Made by a program: the position numbers and the translations under genes. Of a DNA stretch of 36,253 nucleotides, positions 1,939-33,592 are shown in pieces. The notes below the pieces were generated by a model. That model made no database searches. It was not told the origin of the DNA and worked only from the letters and a program-made list of their open reading frames with translations. The DNA lies in the IMG/VR virus record IMGVR_UViG_2706794674_000008; one strand, written 5' to 3'. Position 1 is the stretch's first letter. Each line of letters opens with the position of its first letter. The stretch comes from a virus. Taxonomy: Duplodnaviria > Heunggongvirae > Uroviricota > Caudoviricetes.

Positions 1939-2029
1939 TTTCTTACGTATAAACTGCTTCAATTTTGCTATGCTTCGCAAAGCTGTATCGCGAGGCGGAT
2001 TGCAGACATGGACATCGTAAAAAAACCGC

Positions 2030-2057
2030 TTAATGCGGTTTTTTTACGTCAGGAAAG
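2030..2057. terminator. Bidirectional intrinsic terminator (A-run, 6-bp GC stem AACCGC/GCGGTT, T-run); candidate tR'-like terminator downstream of Q
   Basis: gtaaaaaaaccgcttaatgcggtttttttacg: symmetric A7 / hairpin / T7. Confidence 0.6.
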
Positions 2058-2982: not shown

Positions 2983-3411
2983 ATGGGTTTTCGTAGCGCA
3001 TCAATTCTTACGTTGATTATTAGTGGGATTATTATCGGGTGCACTGATGCTGTATCGACAAATTATCATGACCGTACATCATATTACTCCGATAAAGCAA
3101 TAGAGACACAGTATGTGAGTTCATCTGAACGTACTTCTGATGTTAGTGAGGATATCCGTCTGTATGCCCATCAAATCAAGAGCGCCATCGAAAAACAGTT
3201 CGGGGATGCGAGTAAGTATTCAGGAAAAGAGTGTACACTGAGAATGCATATGGCCCCGAATGGCCTTCTACTGGAGGTTAAAAGAGAAAGTGGAGACCTC
3301 GATTTATGTCGTGAAGCGATGAATGCGATAAAGAATGCTGATATACCTGCCCCCCCTTCGCCGGAAGTATATAAAGTATTTCAAAATGGGGTGCTGGATT
3401 TTAAACCCTGA
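2983..3411 (+). CDS. Lipoprotein with C-terminal TolA domain III-like region (142 aa)
   Basis: Signal peptide with lipobox IIGC; C-terminal ...YAHQIKSAIEKQFGDASKYSGKECTLRMHMAPNGLLLEVKRESGDLDLCREAMNAIKNADIPAPPSPEVYKVFQNGVLDFKP closely resembles the C-terminus of E. coli TolA as I recall it (...AGQIKSAIESKFYDASSYAGKTCTLRIKLAPDGMLLDIKPEGGDPALCQAALAAAKLAKIPKPPSQAVYEVFKNAPLDFKP). Confidence 0.8.
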   Translation: MGFRSASILTLIISGIIIGCTDAVSTNYHDRTSYYSDKAIETQYVSSSERTSDVSEDIRLYAHQIKSAIEKQFGDASKYSGKECTLRMHMAPNGLLLEVKRESGDLDLCREAMNAIKNADIPAPPSPEVYKVFQNGVLDFKP

Positions 3412-3561
3412 TATTTATTGTTTTGTAATAAACGGTTTCGGCTTAGGTTTGTTCTGACACAGCTACGGCACTGAGCTAAATTTAGCGGATAGTCAGCTCT
3501 GAGCCAGTGGCGGACGTAACAACTACTATTGCTGAGATTTTAATGGATTGAGGAGCAAGAA

Positions 3562-3957
3562 GTGGGATTAAAGAAAATCGTTATGTTGACTTTTTGGGTC
3601 GGTTTTGTTGCGGGATGCACACCTTTACACCCTTCAGATTGCCACAAAACTACTGCTACAGGTAGTTGCAGTTCAGGACGCTGGGATGATCAGGATGAAT
3701 GGGGGGCGCAAGCGCGGGGAATCAGAGCTGCAATTAATGCCAAACTTGATGAGCCGCATAACTGGAAAGGGAAAAAATGCAGGTTGCATATGGAATTCTC
3801 TCAGGATGGCACGGCGTTAAAAATATCTACCAGTAACGGTGATAAAGCCTATTGCGAAGCGATAAAGTCCGCAGCTCATAAAGCCAAATTTCCGGCCTTC
3901 AACAATCCGGAAGTCTACAGAGATTTTCAGAAATCTGGCTTTGACATGCGAGGTTAG
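3562..3957 (+). CDS. Second, more diverged TolA domain III-like lipoprotein (131 aa), GTG start
   Basis: Strong RBS GAGGAG upstream of GTG; lipobox VAGC; C-terminal KKCRLHMEFSQDGTALKISTSNGDKAYCEAIKSAAHKAKFPAFNNPEVYRDFQKSGFD keeps the TolA-III Cys...Cys and EVY..FQ pattern; paralog of 2983..3411. Confidence 0.7.
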   Translation: MGLKKIVMLTFWVGFVAGCTPLHPSDCHKTTATGSCSSGRWDDQDEWGAQARGIRAAINAKLDEPHNWKGKKCRLHMEFSQDGTALKISTSNGDKAYCEAIKSAAHKAKFPAFNNPEVYRDFQKSGFDMRG

Positions 3958-4082: not shown

Positions 4083-4107
4083 AGCTCGCTACGGCGAGCT
4101 TTTTATA
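4083..4107 (+). terminator. Intrinsic terminator after the lipoprotein pair
   Basis: agctcgc-tacg-gcgagct followed by ttttta. Confidence 0.5.
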
Positions 4108-4208
4108 TTGCATCGTCTCCAGCATATATATCAATTAAGGCTCTGATTGATGTGTCTGAAAGCCTACACATAATAACTATGCCATCCGTTCCGTGCGGAG
4201 GTGAGGCT

Positions 4209-4424
4209 ATGAAATCCATGGACAAAATTTCAACAGGCATTGCCTACGGCACCTCCGCAGGCAGTGCTGGCTACTGGTTTTTACAGTTGCTCGATAGAGT
4301 AACTCCGTCACAGTGGGCTGCAATCGGTGTGCTGGGTAGTCTGGTATTTGGCCTGCTGACGTACCTGACAAACCTTTATTTCAAGATTAAAGAAGATAAG
4401 CGCAAGGCTGCGAGAGGTGAATAA
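4209..4424 (+). CDS. S: Class II holin (phage 21 S-type pinholin), dual start motif MKSM (71-aa and 68-aa forms)
   Basis: RBS GGAGGTGAGG then ATG 4209 and in-frame ATG 4218; product [26 protein letters not shown]...[13 protein letters not shown] matches S21 pinholin as I recall it; two TM segments. Confidence 0.85.
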
Positions 4425-4921
4425 TGCCTCCATCATTACGAAAAGTCGTTGCTGCTGCTATTGGTGGCGGAGCAATTGCTATAGCATCAGTGTTAATCAC
4501 TGGCCCAAGTGGTAACGATGGTCTGGAAGGTGTCAGCTACATACCATACAAAGATATTGTTGGTGTATGGACTGTATGTCACGGGCATACAGGAAAAGAC
4601 ATCATGCTCGGTAAAACGTATACCAAAGCAGAATGCAAAACACTCTTGAATAAAGACCTTGCCACTGTCGCCAGACAAATTAACCCGTACATCAAAGTCG
4701 ATATACCGGAAACAACGCGCGGCGCTCTTTACTCGTTCGTTTACAACGTGGGTGCTGGTAATTTCAGAACATCGACGCTTCTTCGCAAAATAAACCAGGG
4801 CGATATCAAAGGCGCATGTGATCAGCTACGTCGCTGGACATATGCTGGCGGTAAGCAATGGAAAGGTCTCATGACTCGTCGTGAGATTGAGCGTGAAATC
4901 TGTTTGTGGGGTCAGCAATGA
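4424..4921 (+). CDS. R: SAR endolysin (T4-lysozyme-like muramidase with N-terminal signal-anchor-release domain), 165 aa
   Basis: Start overlaps holin stop (TAATG); Gly/Ala-rich weakly hydrophobic N-terminus [20 protein letters not shown] typical of SAR domains; phage 21 R-like. Confidence 0.85.
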
Positions 4922-5382
4922 ACAGAGTAACCGCGATTATCTCCGCTCTGGTTATCTGCATCATCGTCTGCCTGTCATGGGCTGTTAATCATTACCGTGA
5001 TAACGCCATTACCTACAAAGCCCAGCGCGACAAAAATGCCAGAGAACTGAAGCTGGCGAACGCGGCAATTACTGACATGCAGATGCGTCAGCGTGATGTT
5101 GCTGCGCTCGATGCAAAATACACGAAGGAGTTAGCTGATGCGAAAGCTGAAAATGATGCTCTGCGTGATGATGTTGCCGCTGGTCGTCGTCGGTTGCACA
5201 TCAAAGCAGTCTGTCAGTCAGTGCGTGAAGCCACCACCGCCTCCGGCGTGGATAATGCAGCCTCCCCCCGACTGGCAGACACCGCTGAACGGGATTATTT
5301 CACCCTCCGGGAACGACTGGTAATGATGCAGGCCCAACTTGAAGGTGCTCAGCAATACATAACCGAGCAGTGTTTAAAGTAA
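4918..5382 (+). CDS. Rz: i-spanin Rz
   Basis: ATGA overlap with endolysin stop; N-terminal TM then coiled-coil; nucleotide sequence matches lambda Rz as I recall it. Confidence 0.9.
5138..5323 (+). CDS. Rz1: o-spanin Rz1 (lipoprotein) embedded in +1 frame within Rz
   Basis: [24 protein letters not shown]...[19 protein letters not shown]; lipobox VVGC, proline-rich, fully nested in Rz. Confidence 0.85.
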
Positions 5383-5519
5383 AATCTTAACTACAATATG
5401 ATTCATTTTGATGATTGTTTCATAAGGAACAGTGAAGTAAGATCTAAGAGGAGTTAAATTTTATACAGTATAATCATAATATTGCAGCAAGGTGGTTATA
5501 ATTGAAAGAATATTTAGAT

Positions 5520-6977
5520 ATGAATACATCTCATGTAAGAGTTGTTACTCATATGTGTGGGTTCCTGGTTTGGCTCTATAGTCTTTCAATGTTGCCACCA
5601 ATGGTTGTAGCATTGTTTTATAAAGAAAAAAGCCTGTTCGTTTTCTTTATAACTTTCGTTATATTTTTTTGCATTGGTGGCGGAGCGTGGTATACAACTA
5701 AGAAATCTGGCATTCAATTACGTACCCGTGATGGGTTTATTATAATTGTAATGTTTTGGATTTTGTTTTCTGTTATTAGTGCATTCCCTTTATGGATTGA
5801 CTCAGAACTTAATTTAACGTTCATTGATGCTCTGTTTGAAGGGGTTTCTGGAATAACAACAACAGGAGCAACTGTAATTGATGATGTTAGTTCATTACCT
5901 CGGGCATATTTGTACTATCGGTCACAGTTAAATTTTATAGGTGGTTTAGGAGTTATTGTTCTGGCGGTTGCAGTATTGCCATTATTGGGTATTGGTGGTG
6001 CAAAGCTTTATCAGTCAGAAATGCCGGGGCCATTTAAGGATGACAAACTCACTCCCCGCCTGGCCGATACGTCACGGACACTGTGGATAACTTATTCTTT
6101 ATTAGGTATTGCTTGTATTGTCTGTTATAGACTTGCAGGAATGCCTTTGTTTGATGCTATTTGTCACGGGATTTCCACAGTTTCGCTTGGTGGTTTCTCA
6201 ACTCATAGCGAGAGTATCGGATATTTTAATAACTATTTGGTTGAGCTGGTGGCTGGTTCTTTTTCCCTGCTATCGGCTTTCAACTTCACTCTTTGGTATA
6301 TTGTTATTAGCAGAAAAACGATAAAACCTTTAATCAGAGATATTGAACTTCGTTTCTTTCTGTTAATAGCCTTAGGGGTGATCATTGTTACCTCTTTCCA
6401 GGTCTGGCATATAGGTATGTATGACTTGCATGGAAGTTTTATTCATTCGTTTTTTCTTGCCAGCTCCATGCTCACTGATAATGGTTTAGCTACGCAGGAT
6501 TATGCAAACTGGCCCACGCACACGATAGTGTTTTTGCTGTTGTCAAGTTTCTTTGGGGGATGTATAGGTTCAACCTGTGGTGGAATTAAGTCACTTCGAT
6601 TTCTTATACTTTTCAAACAAAGCAAACACGAGATAAATCAGCTTTCTCATCCCAGAGCGTTGTTGAGTGTAAATGTAGGAGGGAAGATAGTTACAGATCG
6701 TGTAATGAGGTCTGTATGGAGTTTCTTTTTTCTTTATACTCTCTTCACGGTGTTTTTTATACTGGTGTTAAATGGTATGGGATATGATTTTCTTACATCA
6801 TTTGCAACAGTGGCTGCATGTATTAATAATATGGGATTAGGTTTTGGGGCTACTGCATCGTCATTCGGAGTGCTTAATGACATTGCAAAATATTTAATGT
6901 GCATAGCTATGATTCTTGGTCGCCTTGAAATTTATCCTGTTATTATATTGTTTTCAGGTTTTTTTTGGCGCTCCTAA
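5520..6977 (+). CDS. trkG: TrkG/TrkH-family potassium uptake membrane protein, 485 aa (moron)
   Basis: Polytopic membrane protein starting MNTSHVRVVTHMCGFLVWLYSL, same length and N-terminus as E. coli K-12 Rac-prophage TrkG from memory; region visibly AT-rich compared with flanking phage genes. Confidence 0.85.
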   Translation: MNTSHVRVVTHMCGFLVWLYSLSMLPPMVVALFYKEKSLFVFFITFVIFFCIGGGAWYTTKKSGIQLRTRDGFIIIVMFWILFSVISAFPLWIDSELNLTFIDALFEGVSGITTTGATVIDDVSSLPRAYLYYRSQLNFIGGLGVIVLAVAVLPLLGIGGAKLYQSEMPGPFKDDKLTPRLADTSRTLWITYSLLGIACIVCYRLAGMPLFDAICHGISTVSLGGFSTHSESIGYFNNYLVELVAGSFSLLSAFNFTLWYIVISRKTIKPLIRDIELRFFLLIALGVIIVTSFQVWHIGMYDLHGSFIHSFFLASSMLTDNGLATQDYANWPTHTIVFLLLSSFFGGCIGSTCGGIKSLRFLILFKQSKHEINQLSHPRALLSVNVGGKIVTDRVMRSVWSFFFLYTLFTVFFILVLNGMGYDFLTSFATVAACINNMGLGFGATASSFGVLNDIAKYLMCIAMILGRLEIYPVIILFSGFFWRS

Positions 6978-7114: not shown

Positions 7115-7903
7115 ATGAGCGAGAAATTAAAGATAGTCTATCGCCCATTACAAGAATTGTCACCGTATGCGCACAACGCCAGGACGCACAGTACTGAGCA
7201 GGTGGCACAACTGGTAGAAAGTATTAAGCAATTCGGCTGGACTAATCCGGTGCTGATTGACGAAAAGGGCGAAATTATTGCGGGTCACGGTCGTGTTATG
7301 GCGGCTGAAATGCTCAAAATGGATTCTGTTCCGGTCATTGTTCTGTCTGGCCTGACGGATGAGCAGAAAAAGGCGTACCGCCTGGCAGATAATCGCCTGC
7401 CGATGAATGCTGGCTGGGATGAAGATCTGTTGCGGATGGAGCTGTCGGACCTAATCAATGCTGATTTTGATGTCTCCCTGACAGGCTTCATCCCGGCAGA
7501 AATTGATGAACTGTTGACGGATGTTTTGCCCGGTACAGGAAATGAGGAGGAGCCGTATACGACGAAAATTGATACGCCTGTTTATGAGCCGTCAGGCGGT
7601 AAACCGGATATCAGTGAACTGTACGACGATACGAAAACTCAGGAGCTGATCAGCCGGATACGTTCGGCGTCCCTTGATCCTGATATTGAGAAATTCCTCC
7701 TGTGTGCAGCAGAACGTCACACGGTGTTTAATTTCAGCAGAATTGCGGACTATTACGCTCATGCCCCCGCTGAAATTCAGTGCCTTTTCGAGGAGTCGGC
7801 GCTGGTGATCATTGATTATCAGCAGGCTATTGAAAATGGATTTGTCCGAATGACGCAGCGCATGGTGGAGATCATGCATGGCGGGGAGGAGGAATATGCG
7901 TGA
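7115..7903 (+). CDS. ParB-like nuclease domain protein (ParB/Srx N-terminal fold), 262 aa
   Basis: N-terminal YRPLQELSPYAHNARTHSTEQVAQLVESIKQFGWTNPVLIDEKGEIIAGHGRVMAA resembles the ParB N-terminal/sulfiredoxin-type domain; located just upstream of the packaging genes. Confidence 0.7.
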   Translation: MSEKLKIVYRPLQELSPYAHNARTHSTEQVAQLVESIKQFGWTNPVLIDEKGEIIAGHGRVMAAEMLKMDSVPVIVLSGLTDEQKKAYRLADNRLPMNAGWDEDLLRMELSDLINADFDVSLTGFIPAEIDELLTDVLPGTGNEEEPYTTKIDTPVYEPSGGKPDISELYDDTKTQELISRIRSASLDPDIEKFLLCAAERHTVFNFSRIADYYAHAPAEIQCLFEESALVIIDYQQAIENGFVRMTQRMVEIMHGGEEEYA

Positions 7904-25359: not shown

Positions 25360-28888
<3,529 letters not shown>

Positions 28889-29608: not shown

Positions 29609-29618
29609 TGGGGTGAAT

Positions 29619-32600
29619 ATGGCAGTAAAGATTTCAGGTGTACTGAAAGACGGCACAGGAAAACCGGTACAGAACTGCACAATCCAGCTGAAAGCAAAAC
29701 GTAACAGCACCACGGTGGTGGTGAACACGCTGGCCTCAGAAAATCCGGATGAAGCCGGGCGTTACAGCATGGACGTTGAGTACGGTCAGTACAGCGTTAT
29801 TCTGTTGGTGGAAGGATTCCCGCCGTCACATGCCGGGACCATCACCGTGTATGAAGATTCCCGACCCGGTACGCTGAATGATTTTCTCGGTGCCATGACG
29901 GAGGATGATGCCCGTCCGGAGGCACTGCGACGTTTTGAACTGATGGTGGAAGAGGTGGCGCGTAACGCGTCCGCAGTGGCACAGAACACGGCAGCCGCGA
30001 AGAAGTCAGCCAGCGATGCCAGCACATCAGCCCGTGAGGCGGCAACCCATGCGACTGATGCTGCAGGCTCAGCACGCGCAGCCAGCACGTCAGCCGGACA
30101 GGCCGCGTCGTCGGCTCAGTCAGCGTCATCCAGCGCAGGAACGGCATCAGCAAAGGCCACTGAAGCATCAAAAAGTGCTGCCGCTGCAGAGTCCTCAAAA
30201 AGCGCGGCGGCCACCAGTGCCGGTGCCGCGAAAACGTCTGAAACGAATGCGGCAGCGTCACAACAATCAGCAGCCACTTCTGCATCCACCGCGACCACGA
30301 AAGCGTCAGAAGCTGCCACCTCAGCCCGGGATGCGTTGGCTTCAAAAGAGGCGGCAAAATCATCAGAAACGAGCGCAGCCTCGAGCGCCAGTAGTGCAGC
30401 TTCCTCGGCTACGGCGGCAGGCAATTCCGCGAAGGCGGCAAAAACGTCCGAGACGAACGCCAAGGCTTCTGAAACAGCAGCGGAACAGAGTGCCTCCGCA
30501 GCAGCAGGCTCAAAAACAGCGGCTGCGTCGTCCGCCAGTGCCGCGTCAACAAGTGCCGGGCAGGCCTCAGCCAGTGCTAGCGCCGCCGGAAAATCGGCAG
30601 AAAGCGCCGCATCGTCCGCTTCAACAGCCACAACGAAGGCTGGCGAAGCCACTGAACAGGCCAGTGCAGCAGCGAGGTCTGCTTCCGCAGCGAAGACATC
30701 CGAGACGAACGCGAAAGCGTCGGAAACCAGCGCAGAATCCTCAAAAACGGCTGCCGCATCGTCCGCCAGTTCGGCGGCGTCATCGGCCTCATCGGCGTCT
30801 GCTTCAAAAGATGAGGCGACCAGACAGGCGTCCGCAGCGAAGGGCAGCGCCACGACAGCATCCACGAAGGCGACAGAGGCAGCTGGTAGTGCGACGGCAG
30901 CAGCTCAGAGCAAAAGTACGGCGGAATCCGCGGCAACGCGCGCTGAGACAGCGGCAAAACGGGCAGAGGATATTGCATCCGCCGTGGCGCTTGAGGATGC
31001 GAGCACGACGAAAAAGGGGATAGTCCAGCTAAGCAGCGCGACCAACAGCACATCTGAAACGCTTGCCGCGACACCAAAGGCAGTAAAATCAGCCTATGAC
31101 AATGCAGAGAAACGTCTGCAGAAAGACCAGAATGGCGCTGATATACCCGATAAGGGACGCTTCCTGAACAACATTAACGCGGTCAGTAAAACAGACTTTG
31201 CTGATAAGCGTGGTATGCGTTATGTGCGGGTTAACGCTCCTGCAGGTGCAATATCTGGAAAATATTACCCTGTTGTTGTTATGCGTTCTGCTGGCTCAGT
31301 AAGCGAACTGGCATCAAGGGTCATTATCACCACGGCAACGCGAACCGCAGGCGATCCGATGAATAACTGCGAGTTTAACGGATTTGTTATGCCTGGTGGC
31401 TGGACTGACAGGGGGCGTTATGCTTATGGCATGTTCTGGCAATATCAAAACAATGAACGAGCCATCCACTCAATAATGATGAGTAATAAGGGCGATGATT
31501 TGCGCTCTGTGTTCTATGTTGATGGCGCTGCTTTCCCTGTTTTTGCGTTTCTCGAAGATGGCCTGTCAATATCCGCACCTGGTGCTGATCTCGTTGTTAA
31601 TGATACGACCTATAAGTTTGGGGCAACAAATCCGGCGACTGAATGTATCGCGGCGGACGTTATCCTTGATTTTAAGAGTGGGCGTGGTTTTTATGAGTCC
31701 CATTCGTTAATCGTTAACGATAACTTGTCGTGCAAAAAACTTTTTGCCACAGACGAAATTGTAGCGCGTGGTGGTAATCAGATTCGAATGATAGGTGGGG
31801 AGTATGGGGCATTATGGCGTAATGATGGCGCTAAAACTTACCTGCTGCTTACCAATCAAGGTGATGTTTATGGTGGATGGAATACATTAAGACCGTTTGC
31901 TATTGATAACGCAACCGGCGAACTGGTTATTGGAACCAAACTGTCTGCAAGTCTGAACGGTAACGCATTGACAGCAACAAAGCTGCAAACGCCAAGACTG
32001 GTTTCTGGGGTTGAGTTTGATGGTTCAAAAGATATTACTTTAACCGCCGCGCATGTGGCTGCTTTTGCCAGAAGGGCAACGGATACATATGCCGATGCGG
32101 ATGGTGGCGTTCCCTGGAATGCCGAATCAGGCGCTTACAATGTCACCCGCTCTGGCGACAGCTATATTCTGGTTAACTTCTATACCGGAGTCGGAAGTTG
32201 CCGGACCCTGCAGATGAAGGCGCATTACAGAAATGGAGGTCTGTTCTACCGTTCCTCAAGAGATGGCTATGGTTTTGAGGAAGGCTGGGCAGAAGTTTAT
32301 ACCTCGAAAAATCTTCCACCAGAAAGCTACCCAGTCGGCGCACCAATCCCGTGGCCATCAGATACCGTTCCGTCTGGTTATGCCCTGATGCAGGGGCAGA
32401 CTTTTGACAAATCTGCTTACCCGAAACTTGCAACCGCTTATCCGTCAGGCGTGATCCCTGATATGCGTGGCTGGACGATTAAGGGCAAACCTGCCAGTGG
32501 TCGGGCCGTATTGTCTCAGGAACAGGACGGCATTAAATCGCATACCCACAGCGCCAGCGCATCCAGTACGGATTTGGGGACGAAAACCACATCGTCGTTT

Positions 32601-33017
32601 GATTACGGCACTAAATCCACGAATAACACTGGTGCGCATACCCATAGTTTAAGTGGCAGCACGAATGCAGCTGGTAATCACAGCCATAGAGATGGCCGTC
32701 GATTTAACCCCAGTGTTTTTAAAGATACTTATCAATATGGTTATACAAGCTCAGGTCAAAATACCTGGGGTGTACAAGGCTCAGTAGGTATGTCTACGGG
32801 GTGGTTAGCTAATACCAGTACAGATGGTAATCATAGCCACTCACTGTCCGGCACAGCAGCATCTGCAGGTGCACACGCGCATACTGTCGGTATTGGTGCT
32901 CATACGCACTCCGTTGCGATTGGTTCACATGGACACACCATCACCGTTAACGCTGCTGGTAACGCGGAAAACACCGTCAAAAACATCGCATTTAACTATA
33001 TTGTGAGGCTTGCATAA
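29619..33017 (+). CDS. stf: Side tail fibre protein (Stf/StfR-like), about 1132 aa
   Basis: [26 protein letters not shown]... N-terminus as in lambda Stf; long Ala/Ser/Thr-rich repeat region; C-terminal His-x-His repeats ([53 protein letters not shown]). Confidence 0.9.
29960..31010 (+). repeat. Low-complexity Ala/Ser/Thr-rich coding repeats inside stf, with three near-identical AAKTSETNA(A/K)AS units
   Basis: Repeated KTSETNA-containing blocks in translation; source of multiple spurious ORFs in other frames/strand. Confidence 0.7.
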
Positions 33018-33592
33018 TGGCATTCAGAATGAGTGAACAACCACGGACCATAAAAATTTATAATCTGCTGGCCGGAACTAATGAATTTATTGGTGAAGGT
33101 GACGCATACATTCCGCCTCATACAGGTCTGCCAGCAAACAGTACCGATATTGCACCGCCAGATATTCCGGCTGGCTTCGTGGCTGTTTTCAACAGTGATG
33201 ATGCATCGTGGCATCTTGTTGAAGACCATCGGGGTAAAACAGTTTATGACGTGGCATCAGGGGACGCGTTATTTATTTCTGAACTCGGTCCGTTACCGGA
33301 AAATGTTACCTGGTTATCGCCGGAAGGGGAATATCAGAAGTGGAACGGCACAGCCTGGGTGAAAGATGCAGAAGCAGAAAAACTATTCCGGATCCGGGAG
33401 GCGGAAGAAACAAAAAACAGCCTGATGCAGGTAGCCAGTGAGCATATTGCGCCGCTTCAGGATGCGGTAGATCTTGAGATCGCAACGGAGGAAGAGAAAT
33501 CGTTACTGGCCGCATGGAAGACATATCGGGTGTTGTTGAATCGTGTTGATACATCACTATCTCCAGATATCGAGTGGCCAAGTCAACCATAA
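33017..33592 (+). CDS. tfa: Tail fibre assembly chaperone (Tfa-like), 191 aa
   Basis: TAATG overlap with stf stop; [48 protein letters not shown]... typical of lambda Tfa. Confidence 0.85.

Follow-up and report, generated by a model that had tools for sequence, protein, structure and literature searches.

Prophage-borne lipoproteins with a TolA-III domain as possible outer-membrane decoys for Tol-dependent colicins and filamentous phages

TolA's C-terminal domain, TolA-III, is the periplasmic hub for the g3p-N1 domain of filamentous phages and for the translocation domains of group A colicins, both of which have to bind it to gain entry. We analyzed a 36,253-nucleotide stretch of Escherichia coli prophage DNA, referred to below as the window (IMG/VR record IMGVR_UViG_2706794674_000008, Caudoviricetes), in which two adjacent open reading frames, ORF1 and ORF2, encode short proteins that combine a putative lipoprotein signal peptide with a TolA-III domain. 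In E. coli TolA, this domain (residues ~325–421; PDB entries 1s62, 3qdp, 1tol, and 2x9a) stands beside an inner-membrane domain I and a long helical domain II and is coupled to TolQR and the proton-motive force. ORF1 and ORF2 share with it the fold, the Pfam family, and the disulfide cysteines, and ORF1 also has the motif LDFKP, but unlike TolA they are encoded on a prophage and would be held by a short tether to what is predicted to be the outer membrane.

Other described systems resemble the locus in part. Llp of T5, Cor of phi80 and N15, and TraT of F are likewise small phage or plasmid lipoproteins; placed on the inner side of the outer membrane, they protect their carrier from incoming agents. 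The target that Llp and Cor block is FhuA, an outer-membrane receptor, whereas ORF1 and ORF2 would mimic a periplasmic co-receptor and trap the ligand instead of masking the receptor. None of our searches detected sequence similarity of ORF1 or ORF2 to Llp, Cor, or TraT. A resident g3p that blocks TolA uses the same interaction of g3p-N1 with TolA-III and makes cells tolerant to Ff phages and colicin A (PMC10424213), although with inverted logic: there the ligand saturates the receptor, while here a receptor copy would saturate the ligand. An engineered periplasmic TolAIII (the RBP signal sequence–TolAIII fusion pTA3Y of Wan and Baneyx, described in PMC6195910) is likewise an exported free TolA-III, but it is man-made, soluble, and strongly overexpressed, whereas ORF1 and ORF2 are diverged, are predicted to be lipid anchored, and are presumably produced at a low level. 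Finally, the Q-to-lysis cargo of other prophages (stx1 and stx2 in Stx phages and nmpC in DLP12) occupies the same slot with the same cassette logic and late read-through and is also present or absent among otherwise related prophages; its products are a toxin or a porin, whereas ORF1 and ORF2 are copies of a host domain. As databases already annotate the TolA-III domain, the sequence observation itself is not new, and it is the functional class that would be. The first-pass annotation of the window, made by a model from the sequence, knew of no characterized phage system of this type, and our full-text literature search found no paper on these proteins.

Two short proteins with a TolA-III domain

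The first-pass annotation placed the two genes at 2983–3957, and both are present there. Their parts are as follows, in window coordinates:

2983–3411, + strand: ORF1, 142 amino acids, ATG start
3040–3042, + strand: codon of Cys20, in the lipobox IIGC of the ORF1 signal peptide
between lipobox and domain, + strand: ORF1 linker of 34 residues, rich in Ser, Thr, and Asp, predicted with low confidence
3145–3408, + strand: TolA-III domain of ORF1, residues 55–142
3562–3957, + strand: ORF2, 131 amino acids, GTG start
3616–3618, + strand: codon of Cys19, in the lipobox VAGC of the ORF2 signal peptide
3619–3705, + strand: Cys-rich segment of ORF2, residues 20–48, highly conserved, with C27 and C36
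3706–3954, + strand: TolA-III domain of ORF2, residues 49–131

A profile search against the TolA C-terminal domain had been proposed as the check on the domain claim, and both proteins passed the gathering threshold of Pfam TolA_C (PF06519; 25 bits, model of 96 positions). ORF1 scored 82.6 bits (E 2.4e-23, model positions 4–96) and ORF2 54.6 bits (E 1.3e-14, model positions 10–92). Residues 55–142 of ORF1 align without gaps to residues 334–421 of E. coli TolA (E 5e-28; PDB chains 1s62, 3qdp, 2x9a, and 1tol), with 52 of the 88 residues identical (59%), and the C-terminal strings that the first-pass annotation had quoted, ...EVYKVFQNGVLDFKP for ORF1 and ...AVYEVFKNAPLDFKP for TolA, proved exact. 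ORF2 is more distant, its residues 50–129 aligning with TolA 340–419 at 34% identity (E 5e-9). The disulfide cysteines (C363 and C388 in TolA) are kept in both proteins.

Structure modeling, the other check suggested, worked for one of the two proteins. The AlphaFold model of ORF2 has a core with a predicted local distance difference test (pLDDT) value above 90 and the element order alpha1-beta1-beta2-alpha2-alpha3-beta3 of TolA-III, on which it superposes; its best PDB matches by Foldseek were all TolA-III (3qdp, with a root-mean-square deviation of 1.1 Å and a template-modeling score of 0.92; 2x9a; and 1tol). The model of ORF1, built from a shallow alignment of 10 sequences, was poor (pLDDT 52), but the gapless identity of this protein to a solved domain leaves its TolA-III fold not in doubt. 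No match with the TolA-III fold was found among the viral structures of BFVD.

The full-length architecture of TolA is absent, a lipoprotein signal peptide standing in place of domains I and II. Models of TolA proper were matched only at positions 293–386 of 387 (PRK09510) and 265–362 of 362 (TIGR02794), and the PRK09510 scores of 107.8 for ORF1 and 53.7 for ORF2 compare with a cut-off of 213. We thus assign both proteins to the TolA_C domain family and not to TolA proper. The RefSeq annotation (PGAP) labels ORF1 a tolA pseudogene, "incomplete, missing N-terminus," apparently an artifact of matching it to a full-length TolA model; this labeling is found at L002:8452–8712 and L024:3661–3921 (RefSeq NZ_CP033250.1). 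The PHROG family of these proteins, PHROG 5772, bears the annotation "unknown function." For ORF2, the GTG start at 3562 has GAGGAG 6 nt upstream and aligns with the ATG of plasmid homologs, whereas the RefSeq start, an internal ATG at 3583, cuts off the signal peptide's positively charged portion and appears to be an annotation artifact.

In both proteins, a charged, hydrophobic N-terminus is followed by a lipobox (IIGC20 and then T in ORF1; VAGC19 and then T in ORF2; search pattern [LVI][ASTVI][GAS]C), which is kept in all full-length relatives of ORF1 and ORF2. The pattern and its conservation agree with the earlier proposal that both are lipoproteins. Many more proteins appear to be built in this way: an exhaustive HMMER search of 1.8 billion cluster representatives gave 130 matches, 72 of them 100–170 amino acids in length and 49 of these 72 with a clear lipobox. 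The short lipoproteins with TolA-III fall into dozens of 50%-identity clusters, and the architecture of a lipoprotein plus TolA-III is, by its sequences, that of a broad family. The inner or outer membrane location of a lipoprotein follows the +2 sorting rule. As the residue at +2 of the lipobox is Thr or Ala, with Asp in 0 of the 49 related short lipoproteins, the anchor of ORF1 and ORF2 is predicted to be in the outer membrane.

The first-pass annotation saw in ORF2 a diverged paralog of ORF1. However, ORF2 is no closer to ORF1 (31% identity) than to TolA (34%), and the two genes are two lineages stacked in one slot and not a recent duplication. The extra cysteines that it had pointed out are there: C27 and C36 are invariant across the ORF2 clade, down to 37% identity. 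They belong to the Cys-rich segment with the motif CHKTTATGSCSSGRWDDQDEWG, which has no counterpart in TolA or ORF1. Within the protein, the strongest constraint lies on this segment, with a ratio of nonsynonymous to synonymous substitution rates (dN/dS) of 0.01–0.10.

For ORF2 as a whole, dN/dS is ~0.1, across genera and plasmids. In ORF1, intact at 78 of 80 IMG/VR prophage loci, it is 0.09–0.34 in the TolA-III domain vs. 0.4–0.8 in the signal peptide and linker. Both genes are under purifying selection and are functional by the usual sequence tests. The status of ORF1 as a tolA pseudogene was ruled out by its conservation, intactness, and dN/dS.

A cargo slot and the spread of its genes

According to the first-pass annotation, the pair lies between the Q-side terminator and the holin. 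The placement holds, with a Q-like antiterminator gene upstream and genes for a holin, an endolysin, and Rz downstream. The features of the slot and its borders are as follows:

upstream of ORF1 and ORF2: gene for a Q-like antiterminator (DUF1133, PHROG 753), partly masked by N in the window
2016–2050, + strand: strong hairpin terminator, just 3′ of the Q-like antiterminator gene
2309–2338, + strand: candidate late promoter AAGACA-18-TATAAT, from a consensus scan
2366–2385, + strand: terminator-like hairpin followed by a T run, −13 kcal/mol, z-score only −1.7
2686–2872, + strand: full-length match to STnc100, a gammaproteobacterial small RNA family of Rfam, ~110 nt upstream of ORF1
2924–2953, + strand: sigma-70 promoter-like site TTGAGC-18-TATAAT, 30 nt ahead of ORF1, 10 of 12 consensus positions
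2975–2979, + strand: ribosome-binding site GAGGA of ORF1
3454–3482, + strand: promoter-like site CTGACA-17-TAAATT in the spacer between ORF1 and ORF2, 9 of 12 matches
3550–3555, + strand: ribosome-binding site GAGGAG of ORF2
4083–4110, + strand: intrinsic terminator-like hairpin and then UUUUUAUAUU, between ORF2 and the holin gene
4209–5382, + strand: lysis cassette, the downstream border of the slot (RefSeq names essD and rrrD)
4209–4424, + strand: holin, PHROG match
4424–4921, + strand: endolysin, PHROG match
4906–5382, + strand: Rz, Rz-like spanin, PHROG match
5138–5323, + strand: Rz1, embedded reading frame, assigned by position only

The window contains two runs of N, at 1396–1663 (268 bases) and 25360–25612 (253 bases), the first of which hides most of the Q-like antiterminator gene, and this gene was read from the identical RefSeq locus. 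For the Q-side terminator there are two candidates, the hairpin at 2016–2050 (−19.6 kcal/mol, z-score −8.0, with A and T runs at its flanks) and the site at 2309–2392; the latter is a possible, though weak, pR′/tR′ pair. The STnc100 match, with an E value of 2e-17, reaches 86.6 bits where the gathering score is 47; its part at 2780–2872 is conserved upstream of an ORF1 variant of 91% identity and poorly aligned upstream of a variant of 66% identity. The site at 2924–2953 is largely kept upstream of the 91% variant, with two substitutions, one per hexamer, and the element CTGACA...TAA(A/G)TT of the spacer is common to the window and the gene copy on an IncK plasmid. A folding scan found no terminator hairpin between ORF1 and ORF2, while the hairpin at 4083–4100, within the feature at 4083–4110, has a folding energy of −13 kcal/mol, a z-score of −4.35, and a U run on its 3′ side. 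A promoter-like site and a terminator around the pair would be the layout of a cargo cassette ("moron"). We looked for transfer RNA genes in the slot and found none, in contrast to Stx phages.

The slot is variably occupied, as is typical of a moron, holding ORF1 and ORF2 here and an ORF1-type gene alone elsewhere. In other lambdoid prophages, with different Q and holin types, relatives 91 and 66% identical to ORF1 occupy the Q-to-holin slot by themselves. The gene order in one of them (locus L018) is Q, the ORF1 relative, a nanS-p–like esterase gene, DUF1378, DUF826, and holin; ORF1 relatives thus sit exactly where stx lies in Stx phages, and it was to the stx slot that the first-pass annotation had compared the position of the pair. 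Its view of the tandem pair as one system did not stand: each gene occurs alone in other prophages, plasmids, or chromosomes, and this lone occurrence rules out an obligate two-gene system. The ORF1 and ORF2 genes behave like single-gene cargo, each with its own, horizontally spread distribution.

At least 80% of the 1.5-kb region was covered in 771 of 5,426 complete E. coli genomes, and a scan of IMG/VR returned only near-identical E. coli prophage copies. Near-identical plasmid copies of ORF2 (~88% identical to the window gene) were present on 611 plasmids in PLSDB. In six plasmids inspected, the gene followed nikB in the five of the IncI complex and a truncated nikB in pO157. On pESBL, trbC (from 73530) adjoins nikB (ending at 73493) without an intervening gene (PMC4288162), and the ORF2-type gene is therefore accessory on these plasmids; that it might be part of the IncI backbone is ruled out by pESBL and by the 611 carriers compared with 875 plasmids having that nikB type. 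On pO157 of O157:H7 Sakai, the plasmid form of ORF2 is pO157p55 (53756–54187; L111:7001–7432), annotated as "hypothetical protein" and located directly 3′ of the truncated IncI-type nikB and upstream of insertion sequence (IS) elements and toxB. This copy accounts for many of the ~300 nonmobilizable plasmids among the matches.

Lone chromosomal relatives of ORF2 (orphans) occur in Citrobacter, Serratia, Enterobacter, Klebsiella, and Raoultella. When one genome per species was scanned, the ORF2 clade turned up in 49 Enterobacterales species and in no fewer than 34 unrelated neighborhoods. The copies in Serratia and Citrobacter have a synonymous divergence (dS) of only 0.22 from each other, a sign of recent horizontal transfer. 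In Serratia marcescens (L012:6957–8736), the ORF2 homolog lies ~550 nt upstream of GmrSD-N (DUF262) and HEPN genes, a gene pair typical of defense islands.

Some genomes have a further gene beside the one for the TolA-III lipoprotein. A short secreted protein consisting of a TonB C-terminal domain (Pfam TonB_C, E 1e-15) is encoded ~60 nt upstream of the TolA-III gene in the Klebsiella oxytoca group, in a Klebsiella "plasmid," and in a metagenome-assembled genome of Raoultella, so that free copies of both import hubs stand side by side. The two genes lie at L150:5517–5942 and 6001–6393 and are also found in L148, L149, and L151–L153; in Raoultella terrigena, a TonB_C version of 111 amino acids is encoded 750 nt downstream of the TolA-III gene (L109:8140–8475). 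A TonB_C neighbor in Lelliottia turned out to be a full-length tonB of 282 amino acids and was not counted as a short, decoy-like protein. When the short Klebsiella TonB_C protein was searched against plasmids with tblastn, the matches were partial and below 60% identity, and all annotated matches listed were tonB.

A putative tethered TolA-III and its possible ligands

The ligand sites of TolA-III are well described. By strand addition, g3p-N1, colicin N, and the N-terminus of TolB dock on strand beta3 (A415–K420) and the adjoining cavity, and the substitutions D418P and K420P abolished the binding of colicin N and TolB in vitro (PMC4339652, PMC7391070). The site of colicin A is strand beta2 (L375–P380) together with K368, K379, and K396, lysines that engage in cation–pi contacts (PMC3365938). 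The complex of TolA-III with g3p of phage If1 is PDB entry 2x9a. In ORF1, the beta3 sequence LDFKP is identical to L417, D418, F419, K420, and P421 of TolA; Y340, I344, and I348 are also kept, as are two of the three colicin A lysines (K379 and K396). Among ten ORF1 variants, L138 and D139 of this strand are invariant and F140 and K141 are nearly so.

The intact strand that binds g3p, colicin N, and TolB lends indirect support to the reading that we tentatively favor, namely that ORF1 and ORF2 may be outer-membrane–tethered TolA-III decoys against Tol-dependent colicins and filamentous phages. After export, ORF1 would be lipidated at Cys20 and ORF2 at Cys19, and sorting would bring both to the inner face of the outer membrane, where a free TolA-III copy would be displayed on a tether of ~30 residues. 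Uncoupled from the TolQR motor, the tethered domain would capture ligands emerging from a porin or a retracting pilus and so confer tolerance to colicins or filamentous phages on the lysogen or the plasmid-bearing cell. Late transcription driven by Q would also read through the two genes, and heavy expression at lysis may additionally weaken Tol-Pal; the decoy and lysis roles would not be exclusive. Of the elements of this model, the identity of the domain, the lipoboxes, the order of the genes, their purifying selection, and their independent spread are shown computationally, and we infer the outer-membrane location, the expression in the lysogen, the ligand binding, and the tolerance phenotype.

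A decoy in the outer membrane would be well placed, as this is where incoming ligands first appear. I-type pili are the receptors of the filamentous phage If1. Protection fits the distribution better than a lysis-specific role does, because the genes ride on conjugative plasmids of the IncI complex, which have these pili, and because the TolA-III lipoprotein has a TonB_C protein as its neighbor in Raoultella and the Klebsiella oxytoca group. Periplasmic TolA-III reportedly caused both colicin tolerance and leakiness in the work of Levengood-Freyermuth et al. in 1993. The same leakiness is attributed to that study in PMC6195910, which also describes E. coli releasing periplasmic proteins when carrying the signal-peptide–TolAIII fusion of Wan and Baneyx (1998). 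In the converse arrangement, periplasmic g3p-N1 sequesters TolA and brings colicin A tolerance and a 4-log fall in phage uptake (PMC10424213). The affinity of TolA for TolB is weak (dissociation constant of 40–200 µM; PMC7391070), and a low-level decoy could thus trap tight-binding invaders without crippling Tol-Pal.

More broadly, free TolA-III proteins, joined in some genomes by TonB_C, could be co-receptor decoys that form a widespread, hitherto unrecognized single-gene defense against Tol-dependent and perhaps Ton-dependent colicins and pilus-specific filamentous phages; we regard this extension as possible but doubtful.

Several observations weigh against the decoy reading. In ORF2, Y340 is replaced by Q, the colicin A lysines by E, S, and H, and the beta3 strand reads FDMRG in place of LDFKP, and the protein may bind partners other than the TolA ligands. 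The decoy model does not explain the constraint on the Cys-rich segment of ORF2 (dN/dS 0.01–0.10). Many genes of the ORF2 clade are orphans among ordinary metabolic genes of environmental Enterobacterales, a setting that fits a physiological envelope role equally well. Among 50,697 genomes of isolated phages, tblastn found the genes in a single one, mEp460_ev081, whose homology to the window sets in at position 2792 and follows a Q gene unlike that of the window. No PADLOC family matches ORF1 or ORF2, even at E values up to 1. Overproduced periplasmic TolA-III is harmful, and the promoter-like sites of the region are consensus matches only, no commoner than in shuffled sequence.

In an alternative that we find unlikely for the locus as a whole, the proteins would be envelope lipoproteins whose partner is unrelated to the known TolA ligands; the ORF2 clade above all may be a host envelope protein with a partner of its own, taken up by phages and plasmids for a benefit that has nothing to do with colicins or filamentous phages. 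The C-terminal fold of TolA and TonB is a general strand-addition binding module, and short TolA-III lipoproteins are diverse enough to form the dozens of clusters described above; many copies are chromosomal and lie in ordinary neighborhoods. ORF2 in particular shares only 34% identity with TolA-III, its contact residues are changed, and it has an invariant Cys-rich N-terminal segment specific to its clade. The identity of 59% between ORF1 and TolA-III, with an identical ligand-binding strand, is nevertheless hard to reconcile with an unrelated partner, while the scattered, nonsyntenic sites, the low dS between genera, and the recurrence on mobile elements speak for mobile cargo rather than a core envelope gene. 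The alternative is thus a serious possibility for the ORF2 clade and hard to hold for ORF1.

We also find it unlikely that the proteins are primarily Tol-Pal modulators or lysis helpers, in which the tethered TolA-III binds the TolB N-terminus or Pal, competes with TolA, and loosens the outer membrane. The pay-off would then be faster or fuller lysis and virion release under Q, or vesicles and leakiness in carriers, and not exclusion. Such a role would agree with the location of the pair, which belongs to the late transcription unit and has holin, endolysin, and spanin directly downstream; with the intact TolB-binding strand of ORF1 (PMC4339652); with the outer-membrane tether, which would place TolA-III next to TolB-Pal; and with the release of periplasmic proteins upon overproduction of periplasmic TolAIII (PMC6195910). 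Yet the same families occur on plasmids and in ordinary chromosomal sites without lysis genes, which weakens a lysis-only reading, and the cassette has a promoter-like site and a terminator of its own. The low affinity of TolA for TolB (PMC7391070) also argues against it, and chronic envelope damage would be costly, whereas purifying selection is strong in nonlytic contexts.

Finally, it is barely credible that the genes are dead remnants, ORF1 a fragment of a captured tolA and ORF2 a decaying copy, although the pseudogene mark that PGAP gives ORF1 in RefSeq genomes would agree with it. Against it, ORF1 starts from a codon of its own behind a ribosome-binding site, encodes a signal peptide with a lipobox, and is intact in nearly all prophage loci (78/80). 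Its diverged full-length relatives (66–91% identity) keep the lipobox and the domain, its dN/dS stays under 1 and reaches its minimum in the domain, and that of ORF2 is ~0.1 across genera.

The surrounding prophage and implications

The window combines the Rac-type genes trkG and ynaK with a complete late region. In the matching RefSeq genome, uspF and ompN follow the prophage element, and by the K-12 gene map the prophage would lie at the Rac locus. The potassium-transporter gene trkG (5502–6977, + strand) lies directly 3′ of the spanin genes and has a G+C content of 0.32–0.43 vs. ~0.5 in the flanking phage genes; it is a second cargo gene of the prophage, as in K-12 Rac. A ParB-like nuclease gene of the ynaK type (7115–7903, + strand) is full length in the window, with 262 amino acids, and has a truncated annotation in the RefSeq genome that agrees with the rest of this region. 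Farther downstream, a full-length match to the Rfam family IS009 (199 bits; 33360–33558, + strand) lies within the reading frame 33017–33592, which adjoins a long tail-fiber–like reading frame at 29613–33017.

K-12 Rac retains the flanking trkG and ynaK and presumably lacks the Q-to-lysis region, which would explain why laboratory work has never met these genes. In sequenced genomes, the tolA pseudogene label of RefSeq hides a conserved gene, ORF1. If the proteins do tune Tol-Pal, they would be natural tools for studies of outer-membrane stability and vesiculation. If the decoy reading is true, about one in seven complete E. coli genomes and ~600 plasmids, including those of the IncI complex and the O157 virulence plasmid, carry a one-gene shield against two classic Tol-dependent invaders, the group A colicins and the filamentous phages. 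This would be a natural defense by the copying of a host co-receptor domain, unlike the receptor masking of Llp and Cor. It would matter for how colicins shape gut ecology, for antibacterial or anti-plasmid uses of colicins and Ff-type phages, and for phage display in hosts other than K-12.

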